From contig JAAOMT010000372.1 of the NCBI GenBank assembly GCA_016748015.1, positions 310,001 to 374,000 on the forward strand: DNA of 64,000 bases, read 5' to 3'. Under the pieces are notes generated by a model, which saw nothing but the letters and a program-made list of their open reading frames with translations, was not told the DNA's origin and ran no database searches. This document shows positions 4,311-58,900 of this stretch, piece after piece. A program made the translations under genes and the position numbers. This stretch comes from Geosiphon pyriformis uo1 (Eukaryota > Fungi > Glomeromycota). Position 1 is the first letter of the stretch; each line of letters starts with the position of its first letter.

Positions 4311-4354
4311 GGTGCTGGTTCTCTGTAGGATTATATCTTACAGAAAGCATCAAA

Positions 4355-5265
4355 TGTTACAGATGATTATTTGGGGTTTCAAATCAAATAACAAACCCAT
4401 AACTTGGTGCTCAATATTTTGACAGTACTGATAATACTAGTACATTGGTTGTATTTGAAAGTTTTTTAGAGTTGAGTCTTTTGTATAATGGACAGAGATT
4501 CTTTGTTGATGTTATTTGCAGTTTTCTTGTAAGTTGTTTCTCAATTTCTTTCTCAGCTTGGTGGCTGGATTTATTCTGGCATTCATGCTCTTTTGGTAAG
4601 CTATCTGATAATATATATATAATTCTACCTTTATTTCTGGGTCTTTTACCAGGCTATCCATAATGTCAATAACTCAGTGCTTTAATCTTCAATCAAGTTT
4701 TAGTAAACAACCAAATCAAAATAAAAAAATGAAAATGAAAAGAAAAAAAATAAAAGAATAAGCCAAGGTGATAAACAAGTTAGTATTCCATTAATAGCCA
4801 TGATCAAGAGCTATTGGTCCAGTATGGTTAAGTATCAGTTACTATTAACATGAAGTGTTGATAGTAGAAAGTGAATAAAGATATAAAATAATTATTTATT
4901 TGATGATTATGAATTGGAAGGTTGTTTTTATAAAATTTAGACTGAGAGGGTTTTTTTTTCTACTTCTAATACTACTGCTATATATACATAATTGATGTTC
5001 TACGAGATTGCTCACATTTCTAAGCAATATGCTATGATTTTTTGAGCAATGCTCATATTGCTGAGCGATGTGCTCTAATTTTCTAACATCGCTCCACATT
5101 GCTGAGCAATGTGCCATGTTTTCTGATATTGCTTCACATTGCTAAGCAATGTGTTGTGATTTTTATCATTGCTCTATATTGCTGAGCAATGTGCTTATGT
5201 GTTACATACCATTCCCTCATTGGTCTACTATTCTCCCTATATCTGTTTTTTTTTTATGAGTAACA
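4355..5265 (-). repeat. Family B 5' LTR (~910 bp)
   Basis: TGTTAC/GTAACA termini; homologous to 15192-16073, 17313-18203 and 25929-26753; eroded PBS at 4337-4352. Confidence 0.9.
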
Positions 5266-7728: not shown

Positions 7729-8419
7729 TGTTATGATTAAAATCTATACTTCTTATTAATTATCACATGTATTAGCCATTGATGTCATATAAATTAGCCA
7801 CTCTATTTTTAGAAAGTGATCATTGATCTGATCAATGACCTGACTATTGATCTGATTATTGATCTGATCATTAACTTGATTATTAACCACTTTTGATAGC
7901 TATATAAGTGATAAATCTCTTAGCTATAGAAAAATATGTAAGAATCAAAGAAAGAAAAGAAATAAAATAACAACTTTTATTTCAATTATTCTCTTATCAC
8001 TAATTTCTCTTTTCCTATCTTCAAGTATCTGAACATCTTGGAATAAAAAATTACTTGTTGGTTATTTCTTACTTTTTTTCTGAAACATGTAATTACAGCA
8101 TTTAAAGATTATTGAATAAAAATGTGACTGAAGAGTACATTTGATACCTGATATTGAATTCTAAGAGTGCTGACATGAGACATAGAATTATACCAGACAT
8201 GATCATTTGTTGACAGTACAGACTATTCCTCTACCTTCAAATTCCCTGGTTATTTTTGAAAAATATAGCAACTGAGATATTTTATAAGACTAATCTCGCA
8301 TATTGAATCTATACTTATTCAATTTGCTCTTTGAAGTTGAATTCTCTTTGATTTCTTTCATTACTCTACAATCCTGTTCTCTTTTACTATCTGTTAACTT
8401 GTTACTCCAATCCATAACA
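7729..8419 (+). repeat. Family C 5' LTR of C1
   Basis: TGTTA...TAACA termini; homologous to the other five C LTRs in the window. Confidence 0.9.
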
Positions 8420-8425
8420 TAAAAG

Positions 8426-8444
8426 TGGTGCTCCTTGTGAGGTT
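8426..8444 (+). promoter_or_regulatory. Primer-binding site complementary to the 3' end of elongator tRNA-Met
   Basis: TGGTGCTCCTTGTGAGGTT lies 6 nt after the LTR; its complement AACCTCACAAGGAGCACCA fits the T-stem/acceptor pattern of eukaryotic elongator tRNA-Met. Confidence 0.75.
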
Positions 8445-12702: not shown

Positions 12703-12760
12703 TAGTACAATCTCTTAAACCAAACCAACTTAATTATTAGTAACTCCTTTATAAACAAAC

Positions 12761-14080: not shown

Positions 14081-14121
14081 ATAAATGCACTATTCCCAAA
14101 ACAGAGGTATTTTTAATCAAC

Positions 14122-14780: not shown

Positions 14781-16729
14781 ATTACATGTATTAGCCACTG
14801 ATGTCATATAATTAGCCATTCTATTTTTAGAAGGTGATCATTGACTTGATCATTAAACTGACCATTGACTTGATCAATAATCTGATCATTGACCTGATCA
14901 TTGACCATTTTTGATAGCTATATAAACAATGAATTTCTTAACTGTAGAAAAGTATATAAGAATCAAAGAAAAAAATAAAATAAAATAACAACTTTTATTT
15001 CAATTATTCTCTTATTACTAATTTCTCTTTCTCTATCTTCAAGTATCTGAACATCTTGAGATAAAAAATTACTTGGTTATTCCTTACTCTTTTCCTGAAA
15101 CATATAATTGCAGCATTTGAAGATTATTGAATAAAAATGTAATTGAAGAGTACATCTAATATCTGATATTGAATTTTAAGAGCACTGACATTGTTACAGA
15201 TAATTATTTAGGGTCTTAAATCAAATAACAAACTCATAACTTGGTGTTCAATTGATATAATGTTGTTGGTAATATCTGAAGGTATTGTTATCTAAAGGTT
15301 TTGGTTGAGTTCTTTGTATAATGAACAAAGATTCAATAAGATTGATGGTAGTTGTATTCTCAAGTTGTTTTCCCAGTTTCTGTTTTCAGTGTAGTGGCTG
15401 GTTTAATCTGGCAGTTGTGTCCTTCTGGTAAGCTCTCTATTAATATATATATATAATTTTATCTTTATTTCTGGATCTTTTACCAGGCTATCCGTGATGT
15501 CAATAACTCAGCGCTTAATCCTTTTAATCAATTTAGTAAACAACAAAAGAAAATAAAATAAAATAAAGAAAATAAAAGAAAATAAAGAAATAAGAAAATA
15601 AAATAAAAAATAAGTGTCCTGTTAATAGCCATGATCAAGAGCTATTGTGCCAGCAGGTTACATAGTGGATAATAACATGGATTTGAAGAATTAAAGAGAT
15701 ATTTTATTTATATAATTCTATTTCAGTTGATAGGAACTATCCTTGAAATGAGGGTTAATATGTAAAGAAGAAAGGAGATTGTTCTAAATTAATAAAACTC
15801 TATTGAATTCTCCAAAAATTGCTTTTTCTGCTTTTAACACTCTTACTATATATATATAATTTATGTTATATGAGATCACTCACATTTTTGAGTAATATGC
15901 TATGATTTTTTGAGCAATATGTCTTAATTTTCTAATATCGCTCCATATTGCTGAGCAATGTGCCATGTTTTCTAACATTGCTCTACATTGCTGAGCAATG
16001 TGTTCACGTGCTAAATACTATTTACTTATTGGTCTACTATTTTCCTATATCTGTTTTCTTTTTATGAGTAATATTATCTCCTCCTTTTTAATATTGAGCT
16101 CTGTCAAAATCTTCTAAATCTCTCTTTTGTATCAATGTTGTTGTTGTAATTTTTATTGCTATTTATAAATCTAATTTTATACGTGACTGGTGTTTTTAAC
16201 TATAATAGTCTGTTCAGAATATTCATATTCAAATCTTGCATCTGTATTATGTGTATGTTTAGACATAATGCTCTCATTATTATCACTGAATTAAGTTAAT
16301 TCTTGCTCCATTGTAAGATCTAGAAGTGTAATATATTGTTTGATGTTTGAAGCAAAGTTTGAATTATTGTTGACAAAGTTTAAATTATTGTTTGTCATTA
16401 GTGGAGTTTGAATCATTGTTGTCATCAGTGGAGTTTAAATTGTTGTTGTTATTAGTAGAGTTTGAATTGTTACTGTCATTAGTGGAGTTTGAATTATTGC
16501 TGTTATCAGTAGAGTTTGAATCGGGATTAAGTTCTGATTCTAATTCCCATTTGTTCTCACTGATTGGCTCTTCTTTGAATATATAATGCATGGGAATGGA
16601 TTGTGACTATGTCCCAATATTCTGACTCAGGGCTATCAGGTAAGTTTTGCTGATTTATTGGTACTGTAGGAATTAGGTTTTATTGGACTATCAGAGATAA
16701 GTTTCCTTGTATAATAGTAAGGTTTAAAA

Positions 16730-17180: not shown

Positions 17181-17294
17181 AGGTAATAGTAAAATAAAGA
17201 TTTCATGAATTCTAAGTGATTTTTTCTTGTTTTCTTTTGGTCTGCCACTTTTTTGCATGGTTGTTGTTAATACTGGTTCTTTGTTGGATTATAT

Positions 17295-17310
17295 CTCACA
17301 GAGAGCACCA
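17295..17310 (-). promoter_or_regulatory. Family B primer-binding site (elongator tRNA-Met type)
   Basis: Minus strand TGGTGCTCTCTGTGAG, 2 nt from the LTR end. Confidence 0.78.
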
Positions 17311-18450
17311 AATGTTACAGATAATTATTTGGGGTCTCAAATCAAATAACAAACCCGTAACTTGGTGCTCAATTGATATAATGTTGTTGGTAATATCTGA
17401 AGGTATTATTATCTGAAAGTTTTGGTTGAGTTCTTTGTATAATAAACAGAGATTCAATAAGATTAATGGTGATTGTATTCTCAAGTTGTTTTTTCAATTT
17501 CTGTCTTCAGCATGGTGGCTGGTTTAATCTAACAGTCATGTCCTTCTAGTAAGCTATTCATTAATATATATATATAATTCTATTCTTATTTTTGGGTTTT
17601 TTACCAGACTATCTATGATGTCAATAACTCAGCATTTAATTCTTTTAATTAATTTAGTGAACAACAAAAGAAAAGAAAATAAAATAAAGAAAATAAAGAA
17701 ATAAGAAAATAAAATAAGAAATAAGTGTCTTGTTAATAGCCATGATTAAGAGCTATTGTGCCAGCAGGTTACATAGTGAATAATAACATAGATTCAAAGA
17801 ATTAAAGAAATATTTTATTTACATAATTCTATTTCGGTTGATAACAACTATCCTTGAAATGAGAATTAATACGTAGAAAAGAAAAGAGATTGTTCTAAAT
17901 TAATAAAACTCTATTGAATTCTCCAGGAATTGCTTTTTCTGCTTTTAACACTCTTACTATATATATATAATTTATGTTATATAAGATTGCTCACATTCTT
18001 GAGTAATGTGCTATGATTTTTTGAGCAATACTCACATTGTTAAGCAATGTGCTTTAATTTTCTAACATCACTCCACATTGCTGAACAATGTGCCGTGTTT
18101 TCTGACATTGCTTTACATTGCTGAACAATATGTTCATGTGCTAAATACTATTCACTTATTGGTCTACTATTTTCCTATATCTGTTTTTTTTTTATGAGTA
18201 ATAATATGAGGCATAAAATTATACTAAGCATGATTATTTGTTGATAGTATGAACTATCCTTCTATCTTTAGATTCTCTGGTTATTTTTGAAAAGTATAGT
18301 GACTAAGATATTTTATGAACCTGATTTCACACATTGAATCCATACTTATTCAATTTGCTTTTTGAAGTTGAATTCCCTTTGATTCCTTTTATTACTCTAC
18401 AATCCTGTTCTCTTTTGCTATTTATTAGCTTGTTATTCCAACCTGTAACA

Positions 18451-25143: not shown

Positions 25144-25928
25144 TGTTATAGGTTGAAATAACAAGCTAATGAATAACAAGAGAGAACAAGATTGTAGGGT
25201 GATAAAGAAATCAAAGAGAATTCAATTTCAAAGAATGAATTGAATAAGTATGGATTCAATGTAGAAGATCAGTCTCATAAAATATCTCAGTCACTATATT
25301 TTTTAAAAGATAACTAAGAAATCTGAAGGTAAAAAAATAGTCTGTACTGTCAAAAAATAATTACACACTGGTATAATTCTATGCTTTATGTCAGTGTTCT
25401 TAGAATTCAATATTAGGTATCAGATGTACTCTTCAGTCACATTTTATTCAATAATCTTTAAATGTTACAATTACACATTTCAGAAAAAAAGTAGAAAATA
25501 ACCAACAAGTAATCTTTTATCCAAAAATGTTCAGATACTTAAAGATAGAAAAAGGAAAATTAGCAATAAAAAAATAATTAAAATAAAAGTTGTTATTCTA
25601 TTTATTTATTTTCTTATATGCTTTTTTATAGCTAAGAGATTCATTACTTATATAGCTATCAAAAGTGGTTAATGATCAGGTCAATGATTAGATCAATAAT
25701 CAAATCAATAATCAGGTCAATGGTCAGGTCAATGATTACTATTTAAAAATAGAATGGCTAATTATATAACATTAATGGCTAATACATATAATAATTAATA
25801 AGAAGTATAGGTTTCAACTATAATATTATCTTTTCTAAAGAAATTAAGCTTTGATGAAATCAGGCTATTCATAGTGTAATTTATTTGAAGAGTTTTATCT
25901 AACTCAAAGCTAACTAGTTTGTTAATAT

Positions 25929-26753
25929 TGTTACAAGTAATTATTTCTGCTGTGGAATTAAATAACAAACCTGTAACTTTGTGCTCAAAAGCTATCTTAA
26001 TGTGAATGTCGGTAATCTGAAGGTTTTCATATCTGAAGGGTTTTAGTGCAAGTCTTTTATATAATGGACAGAGATTTAATAGTGTTAATAATTAGTGTAT
26101 TTTTTCAATAGTTTTTCCCAATTTCTTTCTCAGTGTGATGGCTGGATTTAGTCTGATAGTCATGCTCTTTTGGTAAGCTATCCAATAATATATAAAAATC
26201 CTACCCTTATTTCTGGGTCTTTTACCAGACTATCCTTGACATCAATAACTTAGTGCTTAATCTTTTAATCAATTAGTATACAACAACAAAGAAAATAAAA
26301 TAAAAAAAATAAATAAAAAAAAACAGAAATAAAATAAGGAAATAAGCCAAAGCGATTTTGATTAGTATCCCGTCAATAGCTGTGATCAAGAGCTATTGTT
26401 CCAGTGTGGTTAAGTATTTGTTACTATCAACATGAAGTTAACAGTGGAAGACAAATTGAGGTATAGAAATAGTTATTTATTGATATTTGTGATGTGGAGA
26501 GTTGCTTAGATTAAATCTAAACTCAGATATCTGTCTTTTCAGCTTCTAACACTACTACTATATATACATAATTGAGATTTCTCAATTCCTCAATTCTTTA
26601 TGATAGGAATCCTGCAATTCCTTGTGTAAGAATCCTGTAATTCCTGGAATTCTGCAATTTCTGAGAGGAATCCTGAAATTCTCTATTTACTATGTCTACT
26701 TCTGATTGGCTAATACTTATGCTAATATATTTCCTATATTTCTATGAGTAACA
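25929..26753 (-). repeat. Family B solo LTR (divergent subfamily) inserted in ORF3 of C2
   Basis: TGTTAC...GTAACA, TSD ATAT/ATGT; C sequence rejoins across it. Confidence 0.88.
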
Positions 26754-36000: not shown

Positions 36001-37824
36001 ACAAGTTTAATGGCTATATCTATTATAGGATTGTTTTTTAGGGCCAGAAAAGGCCAAAAAGCATATAAGAGATTAGTTCTTAATTCTTTTATAAAAGAGT
36101 AAATTTTCTGCTTTTCTGTCTAGTTTTTTCCAGAGTCTACCTGCTTGATTAGTTTTCTGATTGTTTTGGCATATTTAGTTACAATTTTACCAGAATTTTG
36201 GGTTTTTTTTTAATTTTATATGCCATTTTGAGATTAAAATGGGAGTTCTAAATTTAATTTCAAACCAAATTGTAAAAGAAATGATTTTTCTTCAGCATTT
36301 ATTAATGTTCATCTAATAATTTTTTGGTAAGTACTAGTATTGATTTCTTGTAAGAACCAAGTAGCAAGAGAGTCTTGAAAATAGTCACCAATAATTTGGA
36401 ACTTATACTCAGTATTGTATTAATTGGCAATAGCTGCTTTTTCAAAATCATCTAACCATTTAATTAGATTTTGTGTATCATTTCTGAATAAAGGTAATAA
36501 GGTATTGTTTCTTTACTCTAAAGTAGTTTGTATATCTTGGAAGACAGCCAAAATGTTTTGTTGTATAGGGTTATTAGCCATTGGTTTAAGAATAGCTGTT
36601 TGTATAGAATGTTTTGATTTGCTTAAGAAGAGATTAAAAACAGAAGCAGTTTAATAGCTTTTTTTTTTGTTTTAAAGAGAGTTTCAGCTAGTTAATGGGC
36701 AGCAATTTTAATGTGAATTTGGTGATTTAGATATTTAGAATCAGAAAGCTGTTGTTCAAAAGTTGTAGAATATAAAAGCTGATTAATGCTGTTATTTCTT
36801 TTTTCAAAGTTGTTTTTAAAATAAACTTAATCAAAATAATAAGTTGCATAGGCTGTGTAGATTTTAGCTAAATGTTTATTTAGGAACCAGTTCCAAAAGT
36901 CTTAGAATTGTTTACTAAATTGTTCTTTAATAAAGAAGCAAATCAAGCAGAAAAACAAAAAATTGAGTTCAATAAAGTCTAGATTGTTTTTATTGTATGC
37001 TTCAAAATATTCTTCTGATTGTTGTAGTAGATATGAATAATCATCTATATAATAAGAACAAAGTGAATTTTGACAACCTTACAAAAAACACCCCTTTTAT
37101 ATTATGAGTTAGAGTAACAAGTTAATAGATAGCAAGAAAGAACAGAATTATAGGGTAATAAAAATAATCAAAGAGAAAATTACAATAAGGGAACAAATTG
37201 AATATATAAAAATTCAATGTGTGTGATCAGTCTCATAAAAATTACAGTCACAAATCTTTTTTGGAAATTTGAAGATAAAGGAATAGTTTATAATTGTTAA
37301 TAAGATAATACTACTGCTATTATTTTATGCTTCAACTTAGCAATTCTTAGAATTAATAACAGATATTATTGTGCTTTTTAATTGTTTCTTTATTTAATAA
37401 ATTACAAGAGCAAACAATTGCTTCTCAGACTAATTCTAACAAATACAAATCAAGAAGAGGAAAAAATAAGATATGTAAATGCCAACAAATAATCTTTTAT
37501 CCCAAAATGTTTAGATACTTAAAAATAAAAAATAAAAATAAGCAATATAAAAAAATGTAATTAATAGTGTGTTTTATTTTGTTACTTTGATTATGTTTTT
37601 CTATAATTAAGAAATTCATTACTTATATAGCTATTGAAAGTAATTAACAACTAGGTTAATAATTAAATTATTAATCAGATTAATAATTAGGTCAATAATT
37701 AGGTTAACAATCAAGTCATTGATCAGATCAATAATCACTATTTAAAAATAGGATGGCTAATTATGTGATATCAGTGACTAATACATGTAATAATTAATAA
37801 AAAGTATGAGTTTCAATCATAACA

Positions 37825-38780
37825 ATATTAAAAAAAGAATTAGTTTCTACTAAAAAATTTTTATTTAAGATCTTATTTAAAACTGCAAAAAAATTTGGTA
37901 TAATAATAGGAAATATAAACAATTACTGTTGTTTTTTTGATTTTTTGGTCTTTTTGGCTATTTGCAAAAAGATAATAATAATGTTAATAATAAAAACAAA
38001 AAAAAACAATTTATTAACTAATTTATTATTAAAAACTTTAAGATTTTTAAAAGAAATAAAATTAATCCAAATATGTTTTTTAAAGAAAACTTTGACTGAA
38101 AAAAACCACTAGCCAAAGGTAAAAAAAATAATATTTAAAATTTTTTATTTTTTGTTTTGATTGTAGTCATAAAAATAGAAAAAAAAGTGTTTTTTTAAGT
38201 ATTTTAAATAATAAATAATTATTATGTAAAATAGATAAAAATACAAATTAATTTGTAATTTATAAAAAACATTTTTATAAAAAAGTAGTTTTTAATTATA
38301 TTTTTTTTATTAAATAAATTGTGTAATTAGTTTTCAAAGTTTAATAAAATTATATTTATTTTAAAACTTTTATTATTAATTATTTAATTATTTGTTTTGT
38401 GTTATTTATTATATTGTATTAATTTAAATTATTATTGCTTTATTTATTTTTTATATTTTTATTAATTATTAACTTATTTTGTTTTGTTTTTTTACTATTT
38501 AAAAAGTTCAGTTATCAACTTTTCAAACTTTAATTAATTTAAAACTATTACTTAATCTAAATATTCTTTGGCCACTTAAGTTTTAGTTAACAGATATTAC
38601 TTTATTAAACAATAAAAAAAACAAAAACAAAAGCAAAAACAAATTAATTTTAATAATATAAAGAATAGAAAGGCTAATTATATAATATTATTTGGTTAAT
38701 ATATATAATAATTAATGAAGCTAAAAGAAGTCAATATTAATTTCATTAAGTACTTTGATTTTAGAATTTAAGTGGCTAAT
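37825..38780. repeat. Extremely AT-rich degenerate repeat relic
   Basis: Part of it resembles the reverse complement of ~61650-61870. Confidence 0.45.
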
Positions 38781-38939
38781 TCATAATTAAATAATATCAA
38801 ATCTTTTCTGCCCCGTGGCGTTTGAATATTAATACCCCAACAGGGATACACGTCATTTAAGAGTTCTTGAAAATTCTACCATCCGTCTTCGTATTTTTAT
38901 AATCTTTTTTTGATAAATAAAACTAAAAGATTTCAGACA

Positions 38940-40992: not shown

Positions 40993-41606
40993 GGATAATT
41001 GATTGGTATAAAACTTTAATTATAAGCAGTCTTTGATATTCTTGCTTAGCTTTCTTTTTGGTATTTCAGATGCCTTGCTTTTATTTCTATCCTACTTTTT
41101 AGAGTCATCCGGAACCGTTAGCTTTCCATTTTGTAAAGTTTCGATGATATGCTGGTTGCGTTGGTTATCTGAGTTCGTGTTATTTTATCAGAGTTTCTTA
41201 TATTAAAAGTAATTCGGCTCTCCTATTACCCATGGCTGTTTCTATGTTGTCTTTTGGTATCTCAGCCTGTTCCATATTTCAAAGCATCTATCACCTATTA
41301 AAATAGAGATAATTTACCTTGTGTATTTTACACTTTCAAATTTTTGTTTTAGCCAATTTGACCGATCATAAGACGAAGCTATCATTATTTACTCAGCGAT
41401 GTTGAAATTTTATTGTCATAGAATATGAATTTCCAACATTGGAATATAGCAAATAGATTTGGGTCCTATTGTGATACTTTTAACTCAGCAGAAATTTTAA
41501 TCACGTTATTTACACCTCATAAACTATATGAAGTTGAATCTCAGATTTGTAAATCCCCTAAGTGAACACTTACACTATAATGATGTGAACTAAACGATAT
41601 TTTTTG

Positions 41607-41612
41607 ACGCGT
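41607..41612 (+). promoter_or_regulatory. Possible MCB (MluI cell-cycle box) ACGCGT upstream of CAC2
   Basis: Exact ACGCGT ~48 bp before the ATG of a replication-coupled chromatin gene. Confidence 0.35.
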
Positions 41613-41659
41613 TTTAACTTAAAATTTGGTTTTTAAACGACAACTAACTGAATCACAAA

Positions 41660-44209: not shown

Positions 44210-45691
44210 ATAGTTACTCTGAAACCCGCAAAAGTTGTGGATAGTGGCAAGCTGAAACAAGATCCTTTACACGATCAAGTATTAAGATAGATTCTTTTTT
44301 AAGTGTAAAACCCCACAGCATTCACGACCCCAAAACATCTGATCGCGACAAAATCCCATAATACATGGAGAGGCATCTATTAAGAGGAAGAAATCGATGA
44401 TGTGTAGTAAACAGATTTGGTTAGCTTTATAGTGATTTTTAATTGTGTCTGCAATGCGGGAGATGAATTCCAGAGCCGCTGGTTATATTCCTCTACAGGT
44501 ATTGTCAAATTCAAGTACAGAATTAGTATTTTTATATAAATTACTTATTTATTTAAAACTCGATTTAAATAAATTTAATTTTTAAATTTCAATTATTGTT
44601 AATTGTTGAAAATTTTATTGAATGCATTTTTTATATTGAACTTAATAAAATATTTTTTTTAATGTTAAAAAAAATATTTGGTTATTGTATGTTATTATGT
44701 ATTAAAAATGTAATTAGCTAATTAATATTATTTGATTTTTAATTGATTTTAACTTAAATAACAGTATTTTTTCTATGGCTGTTAAAAAAACTTTATTGTA
44801 AAATCAAAATTTTAAAACTTGTTTTTTAAAGAATCAAATTAAGAATCTTGGTAAAATAGTTATTAATATATTCAAAAAAAAATTTAAGTTTAAAAATAAG
44901 TTTAAAGCTGTTTTATTATATAATCACAATATAATCAATAATAATTTAAATTTTATTCTAAGTAATAATGTTTTTATTAATTTGGTAGTTTTTTAAAACT
45001 AAAAAACCAGAAATTAAATTTATTATACAAGTTATAAAAACTTAGATAAATAAGTTTTTTGTTAAAAATAATTATTTAAATAGATATATTAATAAAATAA
45101 ATACATAAAATTTATTTATTTTGTTTAAGCTAAAATAATTTTAATAAGTTTAAATAGCTAATTATTATAATTTTTTCTTTTATATTTTTATAATTAAAAT
45201 AAAAAATAAAAAATTACAAATATTATTATATCTAAAACTATTATTATTTTTATTAAAAATACATTTATAGTTATAAAAACTGAATAATACTTTGTAAAAA
45301 TACTTTTTTAAATAATATTATAATAAACTAATTTATTATTAATATTACAAATAAATATATTAAGTTATGTTTTATAATTTGGTATTATAATTTTATATAA
45401 TTTGAAAAATTTTGGTAAATTTAAATATTTTGTTTTAATTTAAAGTTTTTTGTAGTTGAGTTTTTTGTATAAAAACAAAAATTCAATATTAATAGTTTTT
45501 AATATTTAATATTTTATTTTTTGGTATTGGTAAATATTTAATTATTAATAAATTAATTTTATATTATTTTTGCTTTTTTTACTAAATAATATTTGATATT
45601 ATAATCTTAATATTTATTTTCTAATTAATTAATTTGACAATAAAACAACAATAAAAATAAAAAAACAAAACAAAATAAAGTAATAAGAAAA

Positions 45692-45694
<3 letters not shown>

Positions 45695-45727
<33 letters not shown>
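45695..45727. repeat. (AAT)n microsatellite
   Basis: About 11 perfect AAT units. Confidence 0.85.
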
Positions 45728-45738
<11 letters not shown>

Positions 45739-45849
45739 AAAATTTAATAAATACAGTATAATTGCTATTTAGTATATAGAATCAAGACTAAAGTTCCAGT
45801 TAGATACAATTTATGTTTTTATTAGATATAATTAATTACTTAAACTAAT

Positions 45850-46601
45850 CAAGACAATACTAAGCTCTTATATAAAAAATAATTTTACAATTCAAATCTA
45901 AAAAAAAACAAGCAAAACTTATAAATACTAAAATTAATACTAAATAACTTATTAATACAATTTATGGTTTCTTTTGTAAATTTTTTTTTCAACATAATGG
46001 CTGGTTTATTCTAACAATTGTGCTCTTCTAATAAATTATTCTTAAATTTTTATTTTTGTTTTCAGGTTTTTTACCAGATTATTTTTGACATCAAATATTT
46101 AATACTTAATTCTTTTAATTAATTAGTAAACAACAAAAAAACAAAAGAAAATAAAATAAAATAAAAAATTAGTATCTTATCAATAGTCATGATTAAGAGT
46201 TATTGGTTCAATGTGATTAAATATTAAATTTTATTAACATAGAGTATTAATAGTATAAAAGTAATTAATATTTCTTTAATCAAATGATAATAACATAGGT
46301 TGAATAATAATGGATAATTTTATTAATATAGAAATAATTCTAATTTAAATTATAAAAAATTATTTTTTAAAAAAAAAAGTATTGTTGTTTTAAATTAATC
46401 TGAACTCTATTGAATACTTTTTTTGCTTTTAATATTCTTACTATATATATATAATTTATATTATACAAAATTCCTTGAAATTCTTCAATTTTTTTGAAAA
46501 AAATTCTGAAATTTTGGAATCCTGCAATTTTTTTTTACTACACCTATTTTTAATTGGCTATTTTATCTAATTATTATAATTTCTAATTTCTATAAGTAAT
46601 A
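45850..46601 (-). repeat. Highly degenerate family B LTR
   Basis: ATGGCTGGTTTATTCT, TTTTACCAGA, AATTAGTAAACAAC, CTATATATATAT and terminal TTTCTATAAGTAATA match B LTRs; left boundary uncertain. Confidence 0.7.
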
Positions 46602-49599
46602 TTTCCAAATACTAATATAGCTTTATAATATTAATTTTTAAGCACAAAACTTTTACAAAAAAGTGCATATAGTTTAACATTCAACAAACATAAGAAAAAA
46701 ATTCCAGTACTATAAAAGATAGCAAAGTGCATAATTCTATTAAAAACTTTTAAACTGCAATTTGGTTAAGTATTATTTTTCTATAGAAATTAGTTTTCTT
46801 TGAATATATAAACACATAATTGAAAAACTTAATTTCTATACAATATAAACACAAAATTCTTAGATAGCTTTTATTATAAAGTTTTTTTTTGATAACAACA
46901 AACAGTTTTTTATGAACTGCTTTTATAAAATATGTATACAAACTAGCTAAAGTCTTACTAATAAAGTCTAAAAGCATATGTAAATTCAAATGCCAAATTA
47001 TAAAAGTTTGAATCTAATCAATTTTCTAAACCAAAGACTAATCTATTATTCTGGAGTCAGACTTAGCTTTTTAATAAGTACAATTTACTAATTTATATAT
47101 ATTTCAAACAAAACAATAAAAATTATTAAACACAGCCAAATTATTAGTCTTAATAAAACATGTATATATGTTGTTAAGCAATAATAAAAAAGAACAAACA
47201 GCTCTATTTGCCAAAATATTAGCATAAATATTACTTAAAATCTTTGAATATTCTTTAACTTTTAACCAAGCCACCAAAAAATTCTTATCTCTAATCAAAT
47301 TCATAATATAATTTTTTTTTATTAAACAACAATTGTAAAAATCAGAACCTAACAACTCTAATTTCAAAATACATGTATTTATAATAGCTTAACTATTTAA
47401 GTATACAATTATAATACAAAAAGAAGACATATATTCTAAAAACAAAACAACAGTTTGCAATTTGGTTAATATTAAAGATAACAATCATTAATTCTGATTC
47501 TAATTTCCAAATTTACTTTAAAAAAATAAGCAGCAGTTCTATTAACAATAGCAAAAAAACCCAAAATTTTCAAAAATTTATTAGTATATACATTAATTGT
47601 ATTTAACCAAATTTTATGCTAATGTTTTCTCAAAGTTGAAAACTTATTAATTAATAAAATACTACTACTTACTGACCTAAAAATTACACTAAAAGAAGCT
47701 AATACAAGATCTGTATTGTGCAAAAACTCTAATATTAGCACAAACCAAAAAGACACAAACTTTTTAAAATTTAATTTTTTCTAGCAATAAAATATTTTTT
47801 AATTCATGATTTTGCTTTGTTTATTCAAAAGCTTATTGCAAAAAGTCATACCAAATTTTTTCAAAAAACCAATTTTATCAAAATATAATAAAGTTTCTAA
47901 AATACTTGATATAAAAAACTTGTTAAAGTTAAGAAATACACAAAACAAATTATTTACTAATGAAAAACTATTGTTCAAAAATATACACACTATTCTAGCC
48001 AAAAAATTGCTGAAAAAATTGACTTACAACTTAACCAAGTGCTATAAAAAATTTAAAAAAACCCAGTTTAAAACTTAAAAATCCAAAAATTTGTAATTAA
48101 AGAGCCAATTAAAAATATGCATAATATTTACAAAGACAACTATTGAAGTAATCTTTTCTTTTATCTGAATTTGTTTAAATATTTTTAGACTATACAATAA
48201 AAAATGATACAATATTTTACTAAGAAAGTTGTAAAATAAGCCAGCTTTTATCTTAAAATTCTTTCTAATTAAAACATTTTATTAATAGCAAATCTCAAAA
48301 AAAACAAAACTAAATCGTAATTAATAGCCAATTATAAACTATAGAACAACCAAAACCAGATACAAGAACTGTTTATTTATAACAGTTTTTCTCAATACTA
48401 TATTTGAAAAAAACTTAATATTAAATTAAGCTTTAGCCAAATTAGACTTAGACAATTTATTTGTTAACAAAAAAATTCTCAAATATCTGTATAGTATATT
48501 ATTTTTGACAATTAAAATTAACAAATTATTGATTTTTAAAGAAGTATTCTTAACTCTTTAATTAATAAAAATAACTACAGTCTTATCATTATTAATTGAA
48601 ATATTATTAATTAAGATAAATTTACTGGTAATATTTAATATATATTGTATAAAAGTCTGACTATTTTTAATTCAGATAGTATTATTAACAAAAATATTAA
48701 TTGTAAAAAGAAAGTTTTTTCTCTTTTAATTTTTACTCTATCTGTTTTGGTCACAAATTTAATATTAATTCAGTATTTATATAAATATTTATGTTTTTTA
48801 ATCTTATATAAAAGAGAATTATAGAAGATTTTTTAAAGAAGAAAAAAAAATATCTTATTCTGATCTAGCTCATTATGTACTCAATATCTATTTGTAAGAT
48901 TAAAGTTTATTATTATTTTATTTATTTTGTTTTTATAAATATTGTTACAGGTTGGAATAACAAGCTAACAGATAGCAAGGAAGAACAGAATTGTAGGGTA
49001 ATGAAAATAATCAAAGAGAATTTCAACTTTAAAGAACGAATTAAATGAGTATGGATTCAATATGTGAGATCAGTCTCATAAAATATCTCAATTGCTATTC
49101 TTTTCAAAAGTAACTGGGAAATCTGAAGGTAGAGAAATAGTCTGTACTGTCAACAATTAATCACTGCTGGTATTAATTTTATGCCTTCACGTCAGTGCTC
49201 TTAAAATTTAATATCAGGTATCAACTTGTGCTCTTCAGTCACATTTATACAAATAGTCTTCAAATACTACAATTATTCAAACAAAAAAAGACCAACAAGT
49301 AATCTTTTATTCTAAAATGTTCGGATACTTGAAGGTAAGGAAAGGAAAATTAGCAATAAGAGAGTGATTGAGATAAAAGTTGTTATTTTTATTTATTTGA
49401 TTCTTGTCTGAGAGATGATTTTCTACAGCTAAGAGACTCATTGCTTATATAGCTAATAAAAGTGGTCAATGATCAGGTCATTGATCAGGTCAATGATCAG
49501 GTTAATGGTCAGGTCATTAATTAGGTCAATAATCACTATCTAAAAATAAAGTGGCTAATTATATAACATCAATGGCTAATACATGTGATAACTAATAAA

Positions 49600-50248
49600 A
49601 ATTATGGGTTTCAATCATAACATCATTCTTTCCAAAGAGATTGAGCTCTGGCAAAATCAAGCTATTTATAGGGTATTCTAATTGAAGGGTTTTGTCTAAC
49701 TCAAAACTAACTAGTTTGTTGAAATCTTTTGTGGATAGAGTGTATAGTACTTAAGGTAAAATAAGCTTTGTATCTAAGAGACCAAATCTTTGTATAAGAG
49801 TTTTGGCTCTTCTTGCAATGATCAAAACTCTTGGGACATCTAAATGTATAATGCACAAAATTTCCACTTGTATCTCTGAAGTTGTTTTTTTCATAAGCTT
49901 CATTTCTTCTATGATTTCACCAAGACAACCATAAAGTTCTAGTTGCCTTCCATATGACAAGTTTTTGTCTATGGGCAAGATTTCTTTAATCGTTTTTCCA
50001 ATTGTCATGGAAGGTATAAGTATTGCTGCTGTTATGCTTTCTAGCAAATACTTATCCATTTTGCTACCAATTTTTTCTCTTCTGGTAAAGGTTTTCTTTG
50101 GTCTAATAACAGTATGTGTTCTACTGTTATCAGTTATGGTGGTTTGTTTTCCAATAGTCAGAGTAGCATTTGGATAATTTTTGATCCAGTACTCATGGAG
50201 AGTGTAGAAAGTGTTTTGAATGTTTTGATCTAGGAAATAATTGTTCAT
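49600..50248 (-). pseudogene. ORF3 of C3 (unknown function)
   Basis: ORF 49751..50344; after one stop the frame continues through the polypurine tract. Confidence 0.72.
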
Positions 50249-50289
50249 GTCAATTGAGGATATCTCTGTTTTGGGAATGGTGTATTTAT

Positions 50290-51603
50290 TTATATCTGAT
50301 TTTTGTTGATTATTTGGGTCAGTATTATTACAACAGGTAACCAATCAGGTCATTTGTGATATTTCTTGAGTCATATGCCATGAACAGGGCAATCATTGAA
50401 GATTGTTTCATATTGATCTTGTAAGATATAAGAACTATTGTTCAAAATTTTGTTAACTATAAAGGGTCCTTTCCACTGGCTAGAGAATTTATTACTATAG
50501 ACATTGTCTCTGTCTGAACAGTATTTTAAAACTAAGTTACCAACACTTAAAGAAAGTGTTTTATATGTTTTCTTTTTCTTAAGCTTCTCTTGGATTTGTT
50601 TTATCTTTTCTAAGGCAATTATCCGTGCTTCTACTAATGAGTCAAGAATGGTACCAAGTCTTTTTTGCAAAATGTTTTTGTAATTCTCTATTGTTATTTC
50701 TTCAAAGGGTATTGTCTCAATGTCAGTTTCTATTGGTAGAGTTGTCATTCATCTATAGAGTAGATAAAAGGATTCATAACTTGTTATGTCATGATTCACA
50801 GTTCTATAAGCAAACAAAGCTGAAGGCAGTACTTTGTCCCATAAGTTTGTTTCTTCACTGGTTTTGGCTAGAGTTTCACATAATGTTCTATTGAAATGTT
50901 TTACTAGGCCATTTGTTTGGGGGTGATAAGGAAAAGAAAGTTTGTAACGTATTCCCATTTTTCTGCAAAGTTCTTCAACAAGTGTACTGAGAAAAGCTCT
51001 TCTTCTGTCAGATAAAAGTTCTTTGGGGCAGCTATGGCGACAAATGATATCTTCATAAATGAAATTGGCTATTGAGACTGCTGTTTGGTCTGAAGTGGCT
51101 CTTGCTTCTACTCACTTTGTAAGATAGTCGGTAGCTGTAATAATGTATCTGTTGCCATCAGAAGTTATTGTTAAAGGTCCAACAACATCTATACCAATTC
51201 TGTCAAAGGGTTGATCAACAAAGATTGGATGGATATCTTCTTTGCGATTGGATTTTCCTCTTCTTTGACAGATATCACAGGTTTTGATGTATTCAGCAAT
51301 GTCTTTTTCCAAAGTAAGCCAATAATAGCAAGCTAGAGTTTTCTGAATTGTTTTTGTTTTTCCAAAGTGTCTAGCTAATGAATCAGTGTGCATATTGTAG
51401 ATCACAATTTTTCTTTCTTCAAATCTGATGACTCTTTGGAGGCAGTCAGAATTTTTTCTATTTCTTTTATAAAGTTGGTTTTGGTGAATCAAATAGAAAT
51501 TTGATTGTTTGCACAAATGTTCTCTTTGTTGTCATGTGTATTTTGGTGGGTATTGTTCTTTACCCAAAAATTCCATTAAGGCAGAGTAGTTGTCCAAGTC
51601 CAT
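50290..51603 (-). pseudogene. Integrase of C3 (own ATG: MDLDNY)
   Basis: HHCC, IGIDVVGP, YHPQTNGLV, WKGPF. Confidence 0.9.
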
Positions 51604-51670
51604 TATTATGTTTGTCAAAAAGGAAGAATTACTAATAATTAAGTTGGTTTGGTTTGAGAGAGTTGTTCTG

Positions 51671-54364
51671 TTACTGGATGGTAAGTCTGGAGAGAACATT
51701 GGCGTTTTGATGATTAGCTCTTTTACGATGTTAAATATCATAGTCAAATTCATCCAAGTGGAGTATCCAGCAAGTTATCTGTTTGTGTTCTAGCCTTTTT
51801 TTGTTGTGCAGCCAAACCAAAGCTTGGTAATCTGTTACCACCAAAAACTTCACACCAAGAAGATACTTACTCCAGTAACTGGTAGACCATACTACTGCTA
51901 AGCATTCTTGTTCAATGACTGAATAGTTCTATTCTGCTGGAGAAAGAGTTCTACTGGTATAGGCTATGGCATGTTTTTTGCCATTTTCATCTTTCTGAAA
52001 GAGAACAGTGCCAAGTCCAAAGCCAGATGCATTAGTGTAGAAAATAAAGAGTCAATCTAGATCAGGTTGCTTGAGGATGAGTTCTGTAACCAGTTTTTTC
52101 TTTAAAGTTTCAAAGGCTTTTTGCTGATGTGTTCCCCAATAGTAATTGACATTTTTTCTGAGTAGCTGATTAAAGGAAGAGGCAATTTTGGAGAAATTCT
52201 TGACAAATTTGCAATAATAAGAGGCCAAACCAAGAAAAGAGCATAGTTCATGAATATTTATTGGTTGTTTGATGTTTTGGACTTTTTCAACTTTGGTTGG
52301 GTCAGGAAAAATTCCATCTTTTGTGATAAGATAACCAAGGAACTGGGTGGATTGTTTTTTAAAAAAAGATTTGATTGGGTTGATCTTGAGGCCAGCATTT
52401 CTGAGGAGGTCAAAAACCTTTTGTAAATGTTCCAGGTGTTCATCCCAGGTTTTTGAGTATACCATTATGTCGTCCAAATAGACTAGAACAAAGTTTTCCT
52501 TGACTGATTCAAATATTTTATCTATTAAGCATTGAAAGATGGGAGGAACATTGGTAAGACCAAAAGGCATGACTGTGAATTCATAGGTGCTATATTTGGT
52601 GATGAAGGCAGTTTTCTTTTTGCTTTTTGGATCCATTTCTACTTGCCAGAATCCAGCAGTTAAGTCAATGGTTAAGAAGAAAGCAGCATCTTTGAATTGG
52701 TCTAACATTGCATCAATCTTGGAAAGTGGGTACATGTCTCTTTCAGTAATGGCATTTAATTGGCAGTAGTCAACACAGAAGTGTAGTGTTCCACCTTTCT
52801 TGGATACCACTACAACTGGGAAAGCCTATTCACTCTTGGTTTTTTGTATGAATTCAAGTTCTTTCATCTGGTTTATCTCTTTCTTGATAAACTCATCATT
52901 GTGCCAATTGAATTGGTAAGACTTCAAATAGATGGGTCGAGTTTCTCTGGTGGTGATGGTGTGTTGTATTACATGGGTACATCCAGGGGTATCATCTTTT
53001 TTGGAGATAACTGAGCTATTTCTAGCCAGCAAATTTTCAATGTCTATTTTTCTTTCTTCTGGGGAGAGTTCTTTTTGTTCTATAACCAGTGATTGAATCT
53101 CAGGTGGTTTATTCTCAAAGGACTTCTGTACTTCTTTCAATTCTTCTCTGGATATCAAACTAATTGGTTCCCAATCTCTGTAATAGATCAGGCATGATTT
53201 GCATTCATTGCTTAGAGAATACAAAGGTTTGTTGCACCAATACCAGGCACAAGAATCATGCCACCAAAAACTGTATTTGGCTTTCTTGCCAGGTTTTTTT
53301 TCAAAAGTTCTTTTAAGAATATTATAATAAGGCCAACAGATCAGTTTGCCATTTACAATAATTCTTTCTTTGTCTGCTTTAACATTGTCTAGTGATTTGC
53401 CATTGCTGGTAAAGATAGTATAGGCGAGTTCAGCAGTTTCTTTTTGCTCTTATTGTTCTTTTTTTTCATCACTCTCTTTATCATCTGATTCATCTGATTG
53501 TTCTTCTTCTTGGTTTTGTTTGGGTACTGGAGGAGTTGTCCAATGGTAACACTTAATCACAATGGGTTTCTCACCACATCTAATGGTTAATTCACAAAGT
53601 TTATAATCAAGCAAAGCTTTTGCTTTCTTGAGTCATTCATTGCCAACAATAATGGTGTATTCCTTGGCTTCCGAAACTTTCATGTCAGTTTCAATGCTAA
53701 TTCCATTGATGCGGACAGGAACAGCTTTGGCAATATCCAGTCCTTTTTTTTTGTCACCATGTACATTGGTCATTGGTCTGGTGGAAGGTTTATCAATCTT
53801 TCTACTAATTGCTTCCAAGAAGTGTTTGGCAATGACACTAACAGATAATCCACCGTCCAGAATTAAGTCAATGAAGTATTCAGCCACTTGGGCTTTACAA
53901 ATCAGAAGAGTAACATTGCTGTTGTCAGCAAGTCCAGCTTAGCAAAGGTGCTTGTTGGTTTTTGGTGTCTTTTTCTTTGGAATCAAGAATTTGTGAAGAT
54001 CTTTTCGGAACTGTGGGTGGATCATTAACTGGTTAAAAGTAATATATACTGGAGTTTCCATGAGATTTTTGACAATGGAATAGGGTCCAGATTTTTGTAC
54101 AATTTCTGGGGGTTCCAACTTTGGAAGATTCTTAAAAACTTTAGTCTTTGATGGCTTATTGTTATCAGCAACAGAAGTTGAGACTTTGTTGAGGTCTAGA
54201 ACGAAATCAACCTTGGCTTTCTTCTTCTTTCTGGTTGGTTCTGAGGTGTTGATTGCTAGTTTATCCATGTCATGGTCATCATCAATTAAGTTAAAAGCAT
54301 AAAAAAGGTTTTTTTCTGGTTGGCTTGCACTCTCATCCTTTGGAGGTGTGTTTATCAGTTTAAA
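51671..54364 (-). pseudogene. Pol (PR-RT-RH) of C3
   Basis: LILDGG, CVDYCQLN, MPFGL, YLDD; ends VLSRLTIQ*. Confidence 0.9.
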
Positions 54365-55908
54365 GACTGATAAACAGTGGCTTCAACTAGGGGATTCTCT
54401 CCAAAGAAATTGATGTTGGCATAATTGGGTTTTTGATTGGGGACATTGTTGTTGTTGTTGGATCTGTTGTTTTGGTTGTTATTGTTTCTGGGAGCTGGAG
54501 GAGACAGTGAAGGATTGTTACAATCTCTTGAATAATGTCCAGTTAATTCACAACAATAGCACACAGGTGGGTCATGATTTTGCTGTCTTTAATAGAAAAG
54601 TTGCTGGGGCTGGTTAAAACAAAGTTCATATCTAGGTTTTGGTGGTTGCTGGTTATCTCTGACTGCTTGTGCCAATGGTTTTAATAACCGGGCAAGGTTA
54701 GCTGTGAATCTATCTATCAATTGTTCATTTGGGTCTTGGGTTTGGGCAGCAAAAAAAGTAGCAGCTACTTGAGGAGCAGGGGCCATGACAGAAGTAGGAG
54801 CAAAAACTGAAAGTGTGGATCTCAGATGCATCCTTTAGTTATCTTCAATCCTTTGGGTGAGTTCAATAGTGATATTCATTGTAGGGTTGTCTTTTAGAGC
54901 CAAAAGAGACCAAAGAGCATAAGATAAGTCAGTTCTCAATCCTTTTGTAAAAAAATGAATCTTTTGTTCTTCTGTCCAGTTCCTTCCAGAGTCTACTCGC
55001 TTGATTAACTTTCTGATTGCTTTGGCATATTTGGTTACAACTTTACCAAGACCTTGGGTTTTTCTTTCCAGTTCTATGCACCATTTAGATATTAAGATTG
55101 GAGTTCTGAACTTGTTTTCAAACCGGATAGTAAAAGAGGTATTGTTTTCTCCTGCATCTGCTGGTGTCCATCTGATAATTCTGTGCTGGACATTGGCATT
55201 GGTTTCTTGTGAAAACCATGTGGCAAGAGAGCTTTGAAGGTAGCCACCAACGATTTGGAACTTGTACTCATTATCATATTGGTTGGTAGTGGCTGCTCTT
55301 TCAAAATCATCCAACCATTTAATTGGATCTTGTGCATTACCTCTGAATAATGGTAATGAGGTGTTGTTTCTTCGCCCCAAAGCAGTTTGTATGCCTTGGA
55401 GAGCAGCTAAGATGTTTGCTTGCATTGGATCTTGAGCCATTGGTTCAGGAGTTACTGTTTGAGTGGAATAATCTGAATCACTTGGGAAGAAATCAAAAAT
55501 AGGAGTGGTTTGGTAACTTTTTTCTTCTGTTTCAAAAGGGGTTTCAGCTGATTGATGGGCAGCAATCCAGATGTGAATTTGATGATTTAAATATTCGAAT
55601 TCAGGAGGTTGTTGTTCAAAGGTTGCTGAGTATAAGAGCTGATTGATATTGTTGTTTCTTTCTTCAAAGTTGTTTTCAAAGTAAGCTTGGTCAAAGTAAT
55701 AGATTGTGTAGGCTGTGTAGGTTTCAGCTGAATGCTCATTCAGGAACCAGTTCCAAAAGTCTTGGAATTGTCTACTAGATTGTTCTTTAAGGGGGAAGCA
55801 AATCAAGCAAAATGGCAAAGGATTGAGTTCAATAAAGTCTAAATCATTTCTGTTGTGTGCTTTAAAGTGTTCTGCTAATTGTTGCAGTAAGTATGAATAA
55901 TCACCCAT
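54355..55908 (-). pseudogene. Gag of C3
   Basis: Three in-frame ORF pieces (54835..55923, 54589..54831, 54355..54564); CYCCELTGHYSRDC knuckle. Confidence 0.88.
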
Positions 55909-58900
55909 ACAATAAGGAAACAAGTGGATTTTAACAACCTTACAAGGAGCACTACTTTTATGTTACGGATTGGAGTAACAAACTAACAGATAGCAAAGGA
56001 GAACAAGATTGTAGGGTGATGAAAATAATCAAAGAGAATTTCAACTTTAAAGAGCAAATTGAATGAGTATGGATTCAATATGTAAGATCAGTCTCATAAA
56101 ATATCTCAATCACTATTCTTTTCAAAGATAACTGGGGAATCTGAAGGTAGAGAGATAGTCTGTACTATTAACAATTGATTACTGCTGGTATTAATTCTAT
56201 GCCTTTATGTCAGCACTCTTAGAATTCAATATCAGGTATCAACTTGTGCTCTTCAGTCATGTTTATACAAATAGTCTTCAAATACTACAATTATTTAAAC
56301 AGGAAAAGACCAACAAGTAATCTTTTATCCTAAGATGTTCGGATACTTGAAGGTAAGAAAAGGGAAATTAGCAATAAGAGAGTGATTGAGATGAAAGTTG
56401 TTATTTTTATTTATTTGATTCTTGTCTGAGAGATGATTTTCTACAGCTAAGAGACTCATTACTTATATAGCTAATGAAAGTGGTCAATGATCAGATCAAT
56501 GATCACTATCTAAAAATAGAGTGGCTAATTATATGACATCAGTGGTTAATACATGTGATAACTAATAAAAATTATGAGTTTTAACTGTAACAATATTGTT
56601 AAAAAAACTAATAAATTTCTTATATATTATAATATATTGTAAATTAGTTTTCAAATAGTACTATTTAATAAAATTATATACTTTATTTATGTTTTGCAAA
56701 ACCAACCAAATTTTTTTGTTTTTGTTTTTTTTTAAGACATTTTCAATTATTAAATTGACAGCAAAAATAAAAGATTACATTAAAGTATCTTTCAAAACAG
56801 AAAAGTTATTTCTACAAAAAACACTAAATTTGTTATATATAAATAAAATTTGATCTAAAAGAATCTTAAAAATTTTTTTTTAGCCATCTTAATCAAAGCA
56901 ATAAACAAAGTGTTTGTTAAAATTTCATCTTATTTATAAAGCTTAAATATTATTAAATCTCATGCTCTTTTCTATAAAATTAAAATTGTATTCAAAGTTA
57001 AACATAAATTCAAAAAAACTAAAAACATCTGAAAATTTTATTATTACAATATTTTTATAACTTATTTAAAATACTACTTAAATCTGCAGTTTTTTTGTCT
57101 GGCAAAACTTTAACTATTTGAACCAATTCCTTAAAACCAATAACATTTATAATATTTAAAAAAGTATTATTATCTATATAGCTTAAGAAACATACTAATT
57201 AGCTTAAAGCCCAAACAATAATTCAAGAACTGTTTACTTCTTGGTTTAATTTTTCATGATTGTATTAACTTTAACTTTAATATTTTCAGATTCCAAAATC
57301 AGTTCCTTATCAATTATTAAATAATCTAATATTATTTTGTAAAATAGCTTTTTTAATATATTCTTAATTATGCAGTTTTTATTTGAACAAAAATTTTTTT
57401 TTTTTTTTTTAATTACAAACTTAATAGTAATTGTTTTAATAATTTTGAATTTATATATCTTTAATTGATAATAACTTTTCTGAATTTTTGATAAGCAGCC
57501 AAAAACTTTAATTAACTTGATACTACTTTCAATTAATATTAATATTTCAAAAGTTCTAATATTATCAATAACCAACTAAGTATACAACAAAAAATTAGTT
57601 TTAGATATATTACTTAACTTTAAAATTCTTACTATTTTGGCAATTTGTAACTTCAATTTAAAAAATCTTAATAATTGTTTATTAGAAAGAAATTTGGTCT
57701 TATTATACTATTGTTTAGAAAATATTTCGTTTGCTAATTCTAATATTAAATTTCATAAAAGCTTTTATATTACATCCAAATTACTCTTTTTATTTATACT
57801 ATTAAACTTGTTTATTATTAATAAAAGTCTGGTTGAAAAAAAGCTCTAAATACTAATTTATTTAACACTATTAAAATTCCCAATTTTTAATTTTTAATTC
57901 ACTTTTTTTTAGTTTGTTTATGAACATTATTTATATAAGTATCTAAAAAACCATCCAGTTTTATTAAAAATAAAACAGTTTTATAATCTGTATCAAAAAA
58001 CTCTAAAATATTTCCAATTATTTGGCTAGTTAATGAAGACAATAGATTATTATTCACAAAAAACAAAATTAATAACCTTCTTAATTTCTTTTGAATTGTT
58101 CTATATAGATGTTTTAACTAAAAAGTAATTCTAAAAAACATTAACCAGATTTAAATTCAGATACTTTCTGTAGCTTAATTTCTTTTAGAACTATTTTTAT
58201 TAAAATCTCTTTTTAAAACCACAAATAAACAAGAATTTATTATATTAGCAATAATAATATTTATTTTCAAAACCAGTACAGCTTTTGCTTCAACAGAAAC
58301 ACAAGTGTACAAATCCAGAATTGTAACCAAAAGTTTATTTTTAAAAATTAAATAAACAGAAATCAGCTAATCAAAGACTTCTTTGATCTTTAAGACATAA
58401 TAAGCCAGAAAAAAATTTATAACTACAGTCAAATTAACACCAAAAAAATTATTGTTTTAACCAGATATAAAGATTCAAACTTCATTAAACTTATTTGTAA
58501 TTCATGATTTAATGTTAAATCTTAGCTTTATTTCTGTAATAATAGATATTATATAATCAGAATTCACATATTAACAAACAATATCTTTTTGTTTGGCTAT
58601 GTTGTTTATGCTTTTAATATTATATGTGATAATTTTTCAAATAAAATCTATCATTGAAATATAAGAAATCTACAGAATTTAAGCTAACATTCAACTGATT
58701 CAATTTCTTTAAAACAGAAGAAATAAACACTTTAAAAACAACTAATTTTAATTTCAAACTGCTAATCTTGATGGTTAAGACTTTAAAACTACTTAAACTC
58801 AAATCTAAAATTTTTTTTATCATTAGCAAAAAGAGAAAAAATAATACTTGTAAGTTATTTAAAACCATACTCAAGCCCAAATCAAAATTTGAGATTATTA

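Follow-up and report, generated by a model that had tools for sequence, protein, structure and literature searches.

Two-part complementarity to the anticodon arm of elongator tRNA-Met in the LTRs of a Ty3/gypsy retrotransposon family from Geosiphon pyriformis

All six long terminal repeats (LTRs) of a Ty3/gypsy family, family C, found in the window (the whole 64,000-nt stretch of Geosiphon pyriformis DNA analysed here) contain two boxes that jointly complement the anticodon arm and variable loop of elongator tRNA-Met, tRNA-Met(e), at positions 27–47. The primer binding site (PBS), like the boxes, points to one tRNA type, this elongator tRNA-Met. The boxes are a real and specific feature of these LTRs, and they were probably functional while the elements were active. 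We consider it reasonably likely that they represent selected auxiliary sites at which the priming tRNA-Met(e), besides annealing to the PBS, would bind within the 5' leader of the RNA. A second LTR family, D, also has one of the boxes, so that families C and D both likely used extra pairing for primer capture.

Family C is an LTR retrotransposon of the Ty3/gypsy type, with RVT_1, RT_RNaseH, Integrase_H2C2 and rve domains in that order, and the best solved-structure relative of its reverse transcriptase (RT) is the Ty3 RT (E 6.8e-51). A gag domain was detected in relatives; the ORF of copy C2 itself gave no gag domain match. For the family C gag ORF, all 119 named matches, among 120 listed of 161, were Geosiphon proteins. 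The LTRs are about 630–725 nt long and have TG...CA termini, and a PBS is present. Three insertions (C1, C2 and a third copy) account for the six LTRs in the window, and every copy is broken. The target-site duplication is an exact 4 bp around C2 and decayed around the others. The two LTRs of C2 differ by 53 substitutions, and since all of these are transitions, the divergence suggests a deamination-type decay. The window has a G+C content of 29%, with a strong CpG depletion except at 38–46 kb, and the Glomeromycota lineage of G. pyriformis has been described as showing LTR expansion (PMC11952901). A TATA-like element was found at LTR position 120–200, after tandem repeats, in 5/5 C LTR stretches examined, and every AATAAA hexamer in these five stretches is located upstream of the boxes. 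The boxes would therefore most likely fall in U5. The features are listed in Table 1.

Table 1. Positions of the family C and family D features in the window
Feature	Position	Strand	Remarks
C1	7729-18450	+	3' LTR split by family D element
C1 5' LTR and PBS	7729..8443	+	PBS 8426-8443; decayed boxes: B 8233-8243 (1 mismatch), A 8282-8293 (2 mismatches)
C1 3' LTR, second half	18208..18450	+	first half 14755-15191; decayed boxes 18264-18274, 18313-18324
Third C insertion	spans 25144-37824	-	flanked by two C LTRs
C LTR, third insertion	25144..25829	-	exact boxes: B 25320-25330, A 25269-25280
Diverged C LTR with decayed PBS	37076..37824	-	box A exact 37227-37238; box B 37266-37276 with two transitions; spacer 27 nt
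C2	48943-56592	-	full family C copy
C2 3' LTR	48943..49622	-	exact boxes: B 49120-49130, A 49070-49081
C2 internal region	49623..55936	-	gag, RT, RNase H, integrase, further ORF; stop-interrupted
C2 PBS	55937..55954	-	18 nt, decayed, 6 nt past LTR end
C2 5' LTR	55961..56592	-	TG...CA termini
Box A, C2 5' LTR	56088..56099	-	exact; 12-nt complement of tRNA-Met(e) 27-38, spanning the 5' anticodon stem and the loop
Spacer, C2 5' LTR	56100..56137	-	38 nt; weak hairpin at most
Box B, C2 5' LTR	56138..56148	-	exact; 11-nt complement of tRNA-Met(e) 37-47, spanning the variable loop and the 3' anticodon stem
TATA-like element, C2 5' LTR	56463..56469	-	about 310 nt upstream of box B; putative function
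Older D LTR end	4335..4462	-	box B with two transitions 4453-4462; hairpin; decayed PBS
Box B, D LTR 15192-16077	15274..15283	-
Family D 5' LTR and PBS	17293..18203	-	PBS 17293-17310; box B 17395-17404; 1-mismatch repeat 17411-17420
Predicted 26-bp U5 hairpin, family D	17303..17370	-	buries first 8 PBS bases, takes in LTR end; z -6.5, 0/200 shuffles
Two box B copies, D LTR 25929-26575	26013..26039	-	tRNA 36-47 (12 nt); tRNA 38-46 (9 nt)

Both boxes recur in 6/6 C LTRs and both are exact in three of them. In C2 they lie 133–194 nt upstream of the PBS, with box A 127 nt inside the LTR, and on the tRNA the two boxes overlap by two bases. The sequence matches bore out the originally predicted positions at 56 and 49 kb and the recurrence at 25, 37 and 8 kb; the five LTRs named then were correct, but a sixth copy, in the 3' LTR of C1, had been missed. 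The spacer is 27 nt long in the 37-kb copy versus 38–39 nt in the remaining five C LTRs, so that the change of spacer length between subfamilies that had been proposed is that of one copy. A stable hairpin in the spacer was not supported (significant in 1/6 copies; z 0.23 and -1.39).

The assignment of the boxes to the anticodon arm and variable loop of elongator tRNA-Met agrees with the environmental sequences. For the 21-mer obtained by joining the boxes, 8/9 matches in viral contigs are tRNA-Met(CAT), and when metagenomes were scanned for box B with a PBS-like 3' end after it, 14 loci were returned, 13 of them tRNA-Met(CAT); these reference genes are environmental eukaryotic ones, so the match is to them and the host gene is a presumed counterpart. 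Eleven of the 13 are intronless and two have a 14-nt insert. The tRNA-Met(CAT) genes at L057:551-637 and L064:551-637 have a 14-nt insert after the anticodon that starts by repeating the 3' stem bases and is not called as an intron by ARAGORN. The PBS was also held to fit this tRNA, and it does: over positions 4–18, tRNA-Met(e) matches C1 at 13/15, C2 at 12/15 and D at 14/15, with at most 9/15 for 12 other tRNAs, a scoring based on three of five rows (those for the 37-kb copy and for the D copy at 4 kb, being off register, were left out). In 4,393 contigs from run X1, possibly the sample from which the assembly itself was made, the letters in the majority at 55941, 55945 and 55953 shift the C PBS towards tRNA-Met when compared by eye. 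The PBS pattern gave 30 matches in viral contigs, of which 0/30 contained a tRNA or matched the window by tblastx; the RT query gave no match in viral contigs, and the PBS-matched tRNA pattern gave 0 matches in prokaryotic genomes. Watson-Crick runs of at least 10 nt with tRNA-Met were present in 7/10 LTR stretches, always within positions 27–47, versus 0/170 LTR–tRNA pairs for 17 control tRNAs; the ten stretches belong to two families and are not independent.

The conservation of the boxes relative to their neighbourhood had been proposed as a check in the original prediction. The boxes are better kept than the spacer (columns with transversions or gaps: 1/23 vs 17/39, 11 of the 17 being due to one deletion), but the difference from the rest of U5 is not significant, either by columns (1/23 vs 22/169, p 0.20) or in the diverged copy (0/23 vs 18/169, p 0.09). 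Decayed cells amount to 8/48 in the boxes and 135/402 elsewhere in U5 (p 0.011, with cells that are not independent). Among the 31 listed run X1 contig differences that do not follow the decay direction, none falls in the boxes (p 0.17; 0.067 within U5; 52 further rows lie beyond the listing); the contig depth peaks over box A, whereas box B is covered no more deeply than the spacer next to it. The excess of conservation over U5 is consistent in direction and modest in effect, and the test is limited because decay after insertion is neutral and U5 is conserved throughout.

Selection on the boxes had been argued from the variable spacer length, an argument that comes down to a single copy. The case for selection is strengthened, because a second LTR family shares the primer and the 38–47 box. 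The LTRs of this family D are located at 4236, 15192, 17313 and 25929, with a PBS for the same tRNA-Met 2 nt past the LTR, and box B is found 82–102 nt before the LTR end (exact in 3/4, repeated in 3/4; the fourth copy has two transitions). At 46 kb there is a fifth D-like stretch, a partial one, which stops short of the box B region. The C and D LTRs do not align, and the words that they share are short or AT-rich, the 11-nt box B being among them; when 4.2 kb of the interiors were compared, the sole similarity was in the protease (segments of 37 and 27 aa with 51% and 41% identity). Near the end of the family D 5' LTR, in the copy whose PBS is intact, a long hairpin is predicted that would bury part of the PBS (Table 1). 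The older PBS-bearing D copy has the same predicted fold (z -1.1), and the two D copies without a PBS were not significant. A hexamer in the hairpin loop (17334-17339), spotted by eye afterwards, is complementary to tRNA positions 30–35; it is exact in one of the four copies, one transition off in two and absent in one. The inner stem of the hairpin is also predicted in the 4.4-kb and 26-kb copies.

In the arrangement that we favour, transcription would start near the TATA-like element, which would place the boxes in the leader. Nucleocapsid proteins have a chaperone role in tRNA annealing, and Gag/NC would open the anticodon arm to form two helices, of tRNA positions 47–38 on box B and 37–27 on box A; the spacer would loop out, and the last 18 nt of the tRNA at its 3' end would anneal to the PBS. 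A single tRNA would need a pseudoknot-like complex, because the PBS and box helices cannot nest. Pairing with the boxes would aid primer selection, packaging and annealing, and about 130 nt into strong-stop synthesis the RT would need to dislodge the tRNA. It counts against this reading that 21 bp of RNA duplex on the strong-stop template would hinder synthesis more than the 7 nt and A-rich loop of HIV-1. In family D, the exposed box B would act as a toehold from which the tRNA invades the hairpin-buried PBS. The co-folding that had been suggested as a check was favourable in one respect, the box–tRNA helices appearing in the minimum-energy co-fold of 7/9 leaders. The co-fold energy failed as a test of specificity, tRNA-Met being the best binder among 19 tRNAs in just 2/9 leaders. 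We put forward, more tentatively, that in this fungal lineage the Ty3/gypsy families priming with elongator tRNA-Met may repeatedly have acquired a clamp in U5 by which the entire anticodon arm is unzipped: in family C through 21 paired bases around a looped-out spacer, and in family D through a toehold box present in repeats and a loop, matching the anticodon, on a hairpin that locks the PBS until the right tRNA docks. If this were true, the clamp would be a tRNA-triggered switch for reverse transcription, and it would explain how an element draws an elongator tRNA out of translation.

The original prediction named the Ty1 boxes, the Ty3 bipartite PBS and the HIV-1 primer activation signal as analogous to, though different from, this arrangement. 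Closer analogues than the Ty1 boxes or the primer activation signal are the A-rich loop and nt 142–148 of HIV-1 (PMC3185550) and the 11-nt site of Drosophila gypsy (PMC1635307). In HIV-1, the A-rich loop is reported to pair with the anticodon loop of tRNA-Lys3, and nt 142–148 with the 3' anticodon stem and variable loop (PMC3185550, PMC13191261); the virus is also reported to retain a tRNA-Met primer once both the PBS and the A-loop match that tRNA (PMC1797187). The same tRNA parts would be bound in family C, likewise upstream of a full 18-nt PBS, and the sequence upstream of the family C PBS is complementary to the anticodon arm and variable loop of the primer, as judged against environmental tRNA-Met genes. 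The order box B, box A, PBS is apparently also that of HIV-1, in which nt 142–148 precede the A-rich loop in the published description (PMC3185550). Family C differs in being a fungal Ty3/gypsy element that uses elongator tRNA-Met, and in having 11 and 12 nt that are exact, cover all of 27–47 and lie 133–194 nt from the PBS, whereas in HIV-1 the pairing is described as involving 7 nt and a short A-rich loop that are within a few tens of nt of the PBS (PMC3185550). By analogy, the family C arrangement would work like the HIV-1 extended complex, in a longer, exact form farther from the PBS. Drosophila gypsy, a Ty3/gypsy element like family C, is described as having an auxiliary anticodon-stem site, a second site of 11 nt for tRNA-Lys2 covering part of the anticodon stem and beyond (PMC1635307). 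According to that description the site is internal, near the RNA 3' end, single and accompanied by an 11-nt PBS (PMC1635307), whereas in family C the sites are in the LTR, doubled, and accompanied by an 18-nt PBS.

Extra sites for the primer tRNA are also a feature of Ty1 and Ty3, and those of Ty1 are reported to aid primer packaging and initiation (PMC5371799, PMC4974528). However, the Ty1 and Ty3 sites are described as targeting initiator tRNA-Met at its T and D arms, and as lying downstream of the PBS in Ty1 and at the 3' end in Ty3 (PMC5371799, PMC4974528). No T- or D-arm complement of at least 8 nt was found in the C and D LTRs; the PBS fits over 18 nt, and the tRNA is of the elongator type, unlike in the multipartite Ty1/Ty3 type, where such sites complete a short PBS. 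The family D PBS is predicted to be buried in the same way as that of HTLV-1, which is reported to lie in a stable hairpin (PMC13366004), with the difference that in family D an adjacent tRNA-complementary box could provide a toehold. Pairing with these tRNA parts is already known from HIV-1 and Drosophila gypsy, and the present case would be a longer version of it. In the literature searched, which took in few subscription papers and few Repbase entries, no description was found of fungal LTRs with boxes of this kind, or of an LTR retrotransposon primed by elongator tRNA-Met. A survey of transposable elements in arbuscular mycorrhizal fungi contains 0 occurrences of "primer binding" or "tRNA" (PMC11952901). 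The role of the HIV-1 anticodon-arm and variable-loop pairing is described as disputed, one reason being that these helices are short and vary between isolates (PMC3185550). A natural 21-bp exact case, together with a family whose hairpin would bury the PBS, would be a much cleaner system for testing the effects of such pairing on primer choice, packaging, initiation control and strand transfer, and the present case shows that a search of LTRs for complements of the tRNA to which their PBS points can reveal auxiliary primer sites.

The boxes could also bind the primer from the RNA 3' end, if R were long or if they belonged to U3, with the tRNA bridging the two ends and helping minus-strand transfer, as in Ty3 and Drosophila gypsy. 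A transcript start downstream of the boxes, treated in the original prediction as fatal to the idea of extra pairing, would in fact leave them in U3 at the RNA 3' end, the arrangement of Ty3. The distance between the boxes and the PBS, long for a local initiation complex, is in keeping with such bridging. However, the TATA-like element (LTR position 120–200) and AATAAA upstream of the boxes favour U5, and the box in family D adjoins the PBS hairpin, so we regard bridging as unlikely.

A quite improbable reading is that the boxes bind a second tRNA or an anticodon-cleaved half, as a packaging aid, decoy, dimer link or secondary priming site. That the PBS and box helices cannot nest, as judged from the pairing order, would be accounted for in this way, as would the D copy with two near-perfect box B repeats, and box A spans the segment reported to be used by half-tRNA primers of the copia type (PMC10886601). 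Nevertheless, the anticodon-arm complement of half-tRNA-primed copia elements is described as directly following the LTR (PMC10886601), where it replaces the 3'-end PBS, whereas here a full 3'-end PBS follows the LTR and box A is 127 nt inside it, unlike in the half-tRNA type of copia and Ty5. If priming took place at box A, the final 127 nt of the LTR would be lost.

The original prediction offered as its alternative an antisense relic of an intron-containing tRNA-Met gene, captured and since neutral, with the spacer as the intron. The split of the boxes is compatible with the canonical 37/38 intron site, one eukaryotic tRNA-Met (L048) has a 17-nt intron at 37/38, and a tRNA-gene-like sequence is reported for HIV-1 U3-R. 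However, the D, T and acceptor arms are missing from the flanks (3–6/26 matches upstream and 6–10/26 downstream), and local scores of the flanks were no better than those of shuffles in 3/3 copies. Because the flanks have no D or T arm, a neutral relic is very improbable. Neither ARAGORN nor Rfam called a tRNA at the LTRs, and Rfam at E up to 10 gave six sub-threshold matches, none to a tRNA. The Pol III A and B promoter boxes, described as kept in Helenus TRIMs, which have tRNA-related sequence in the LTR (PMC10886601), are absent, so that the D and T arms with Pol III boxes expected of a tRNA-derived LTR were not found. The 11 intronless genes among the 13 tRNA-Met matches with a PBS-like end, none of which has a 38–39-nt insert, also argue against a spacer of intron origin, as do the occurrence of box B in family D without such a spacer and the two-base overlap of the boxes; a split near the loop would equally be what two helices need. 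Capture of a tRNA gene is possible as the origin of the boxes, but keeping only positions 27–47 would still require selection.

A single box alone is not proof of pairing, because a lone 14-nt match arises by chance in the window. This match, to tRNA-Met positions 31–44, lies at 5979-5992 within an unrelated coding frame and is taken as chance. In addition, shuffles of family D LTRs show a run of at least 10 nt somewhere in 2–3% of cases, and split box patterns matched two non-tRNA sites in viral contigs. An ordered, adjacent pair of boxes matching the tRNA of the PBS is not due to chance: in 20,000 dinucleotide shuffles of one C LTR, a run of at least 12 nt appeared 55 times and two separate runs of at least 10 nt just 13 times, with neither order nor adjacency demanded, the PBS names the same tRNA, and family D matches the same 10 positions, so that a coincidence of AT-rich words passed down within one family deserves almost no credence.

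Several other observations concern the elements and their surroundings. The region 38000-46000 is the sole CpG-retaining island of the window and holds the host CAF1B gene, with the surrounding repeats mostly at CpG o/e 0–0.2; a CAF1B exon has 99% identity to a Geosiphon pyriformis protein, the next best match being from Ambispora (59%). The two LTRs of the third C insertion share just about 69% identity, versus 85% for the C2 LTR pair, and this insertion may have arisen by recombination between two subfamilies; a 4.3-kb insert that carries a DDE_1 ORF (30011-34281) breaks up its pol. In both full C copies, RNase H is directly followed by a stop, and a Met precedes the integrase frame by a short distance (about 51600-51700, minus strand, and about 12600-12750, plus strand). 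An extra ORF of up to 197 aa follows the integrase in family C (49751-50344, minus strand; 14026-14526, plus strand) and gave no Pfam match and no usable atlas match. The family D element at 15192-18207 is inserted in the 3' LTR of C1, with an interior of about 1.2 kb, 88-bp tandem repeats at 16849-17177 and a decayed 4-bp duplication, and is probably non-autonomous. Finally, the gap between the LTR end and the PBS is 6 nt in family C (55955-55960, 8420-8425) and 2 nt in family D, a difference that may be relevant to the processing of the U5 end by integrase.
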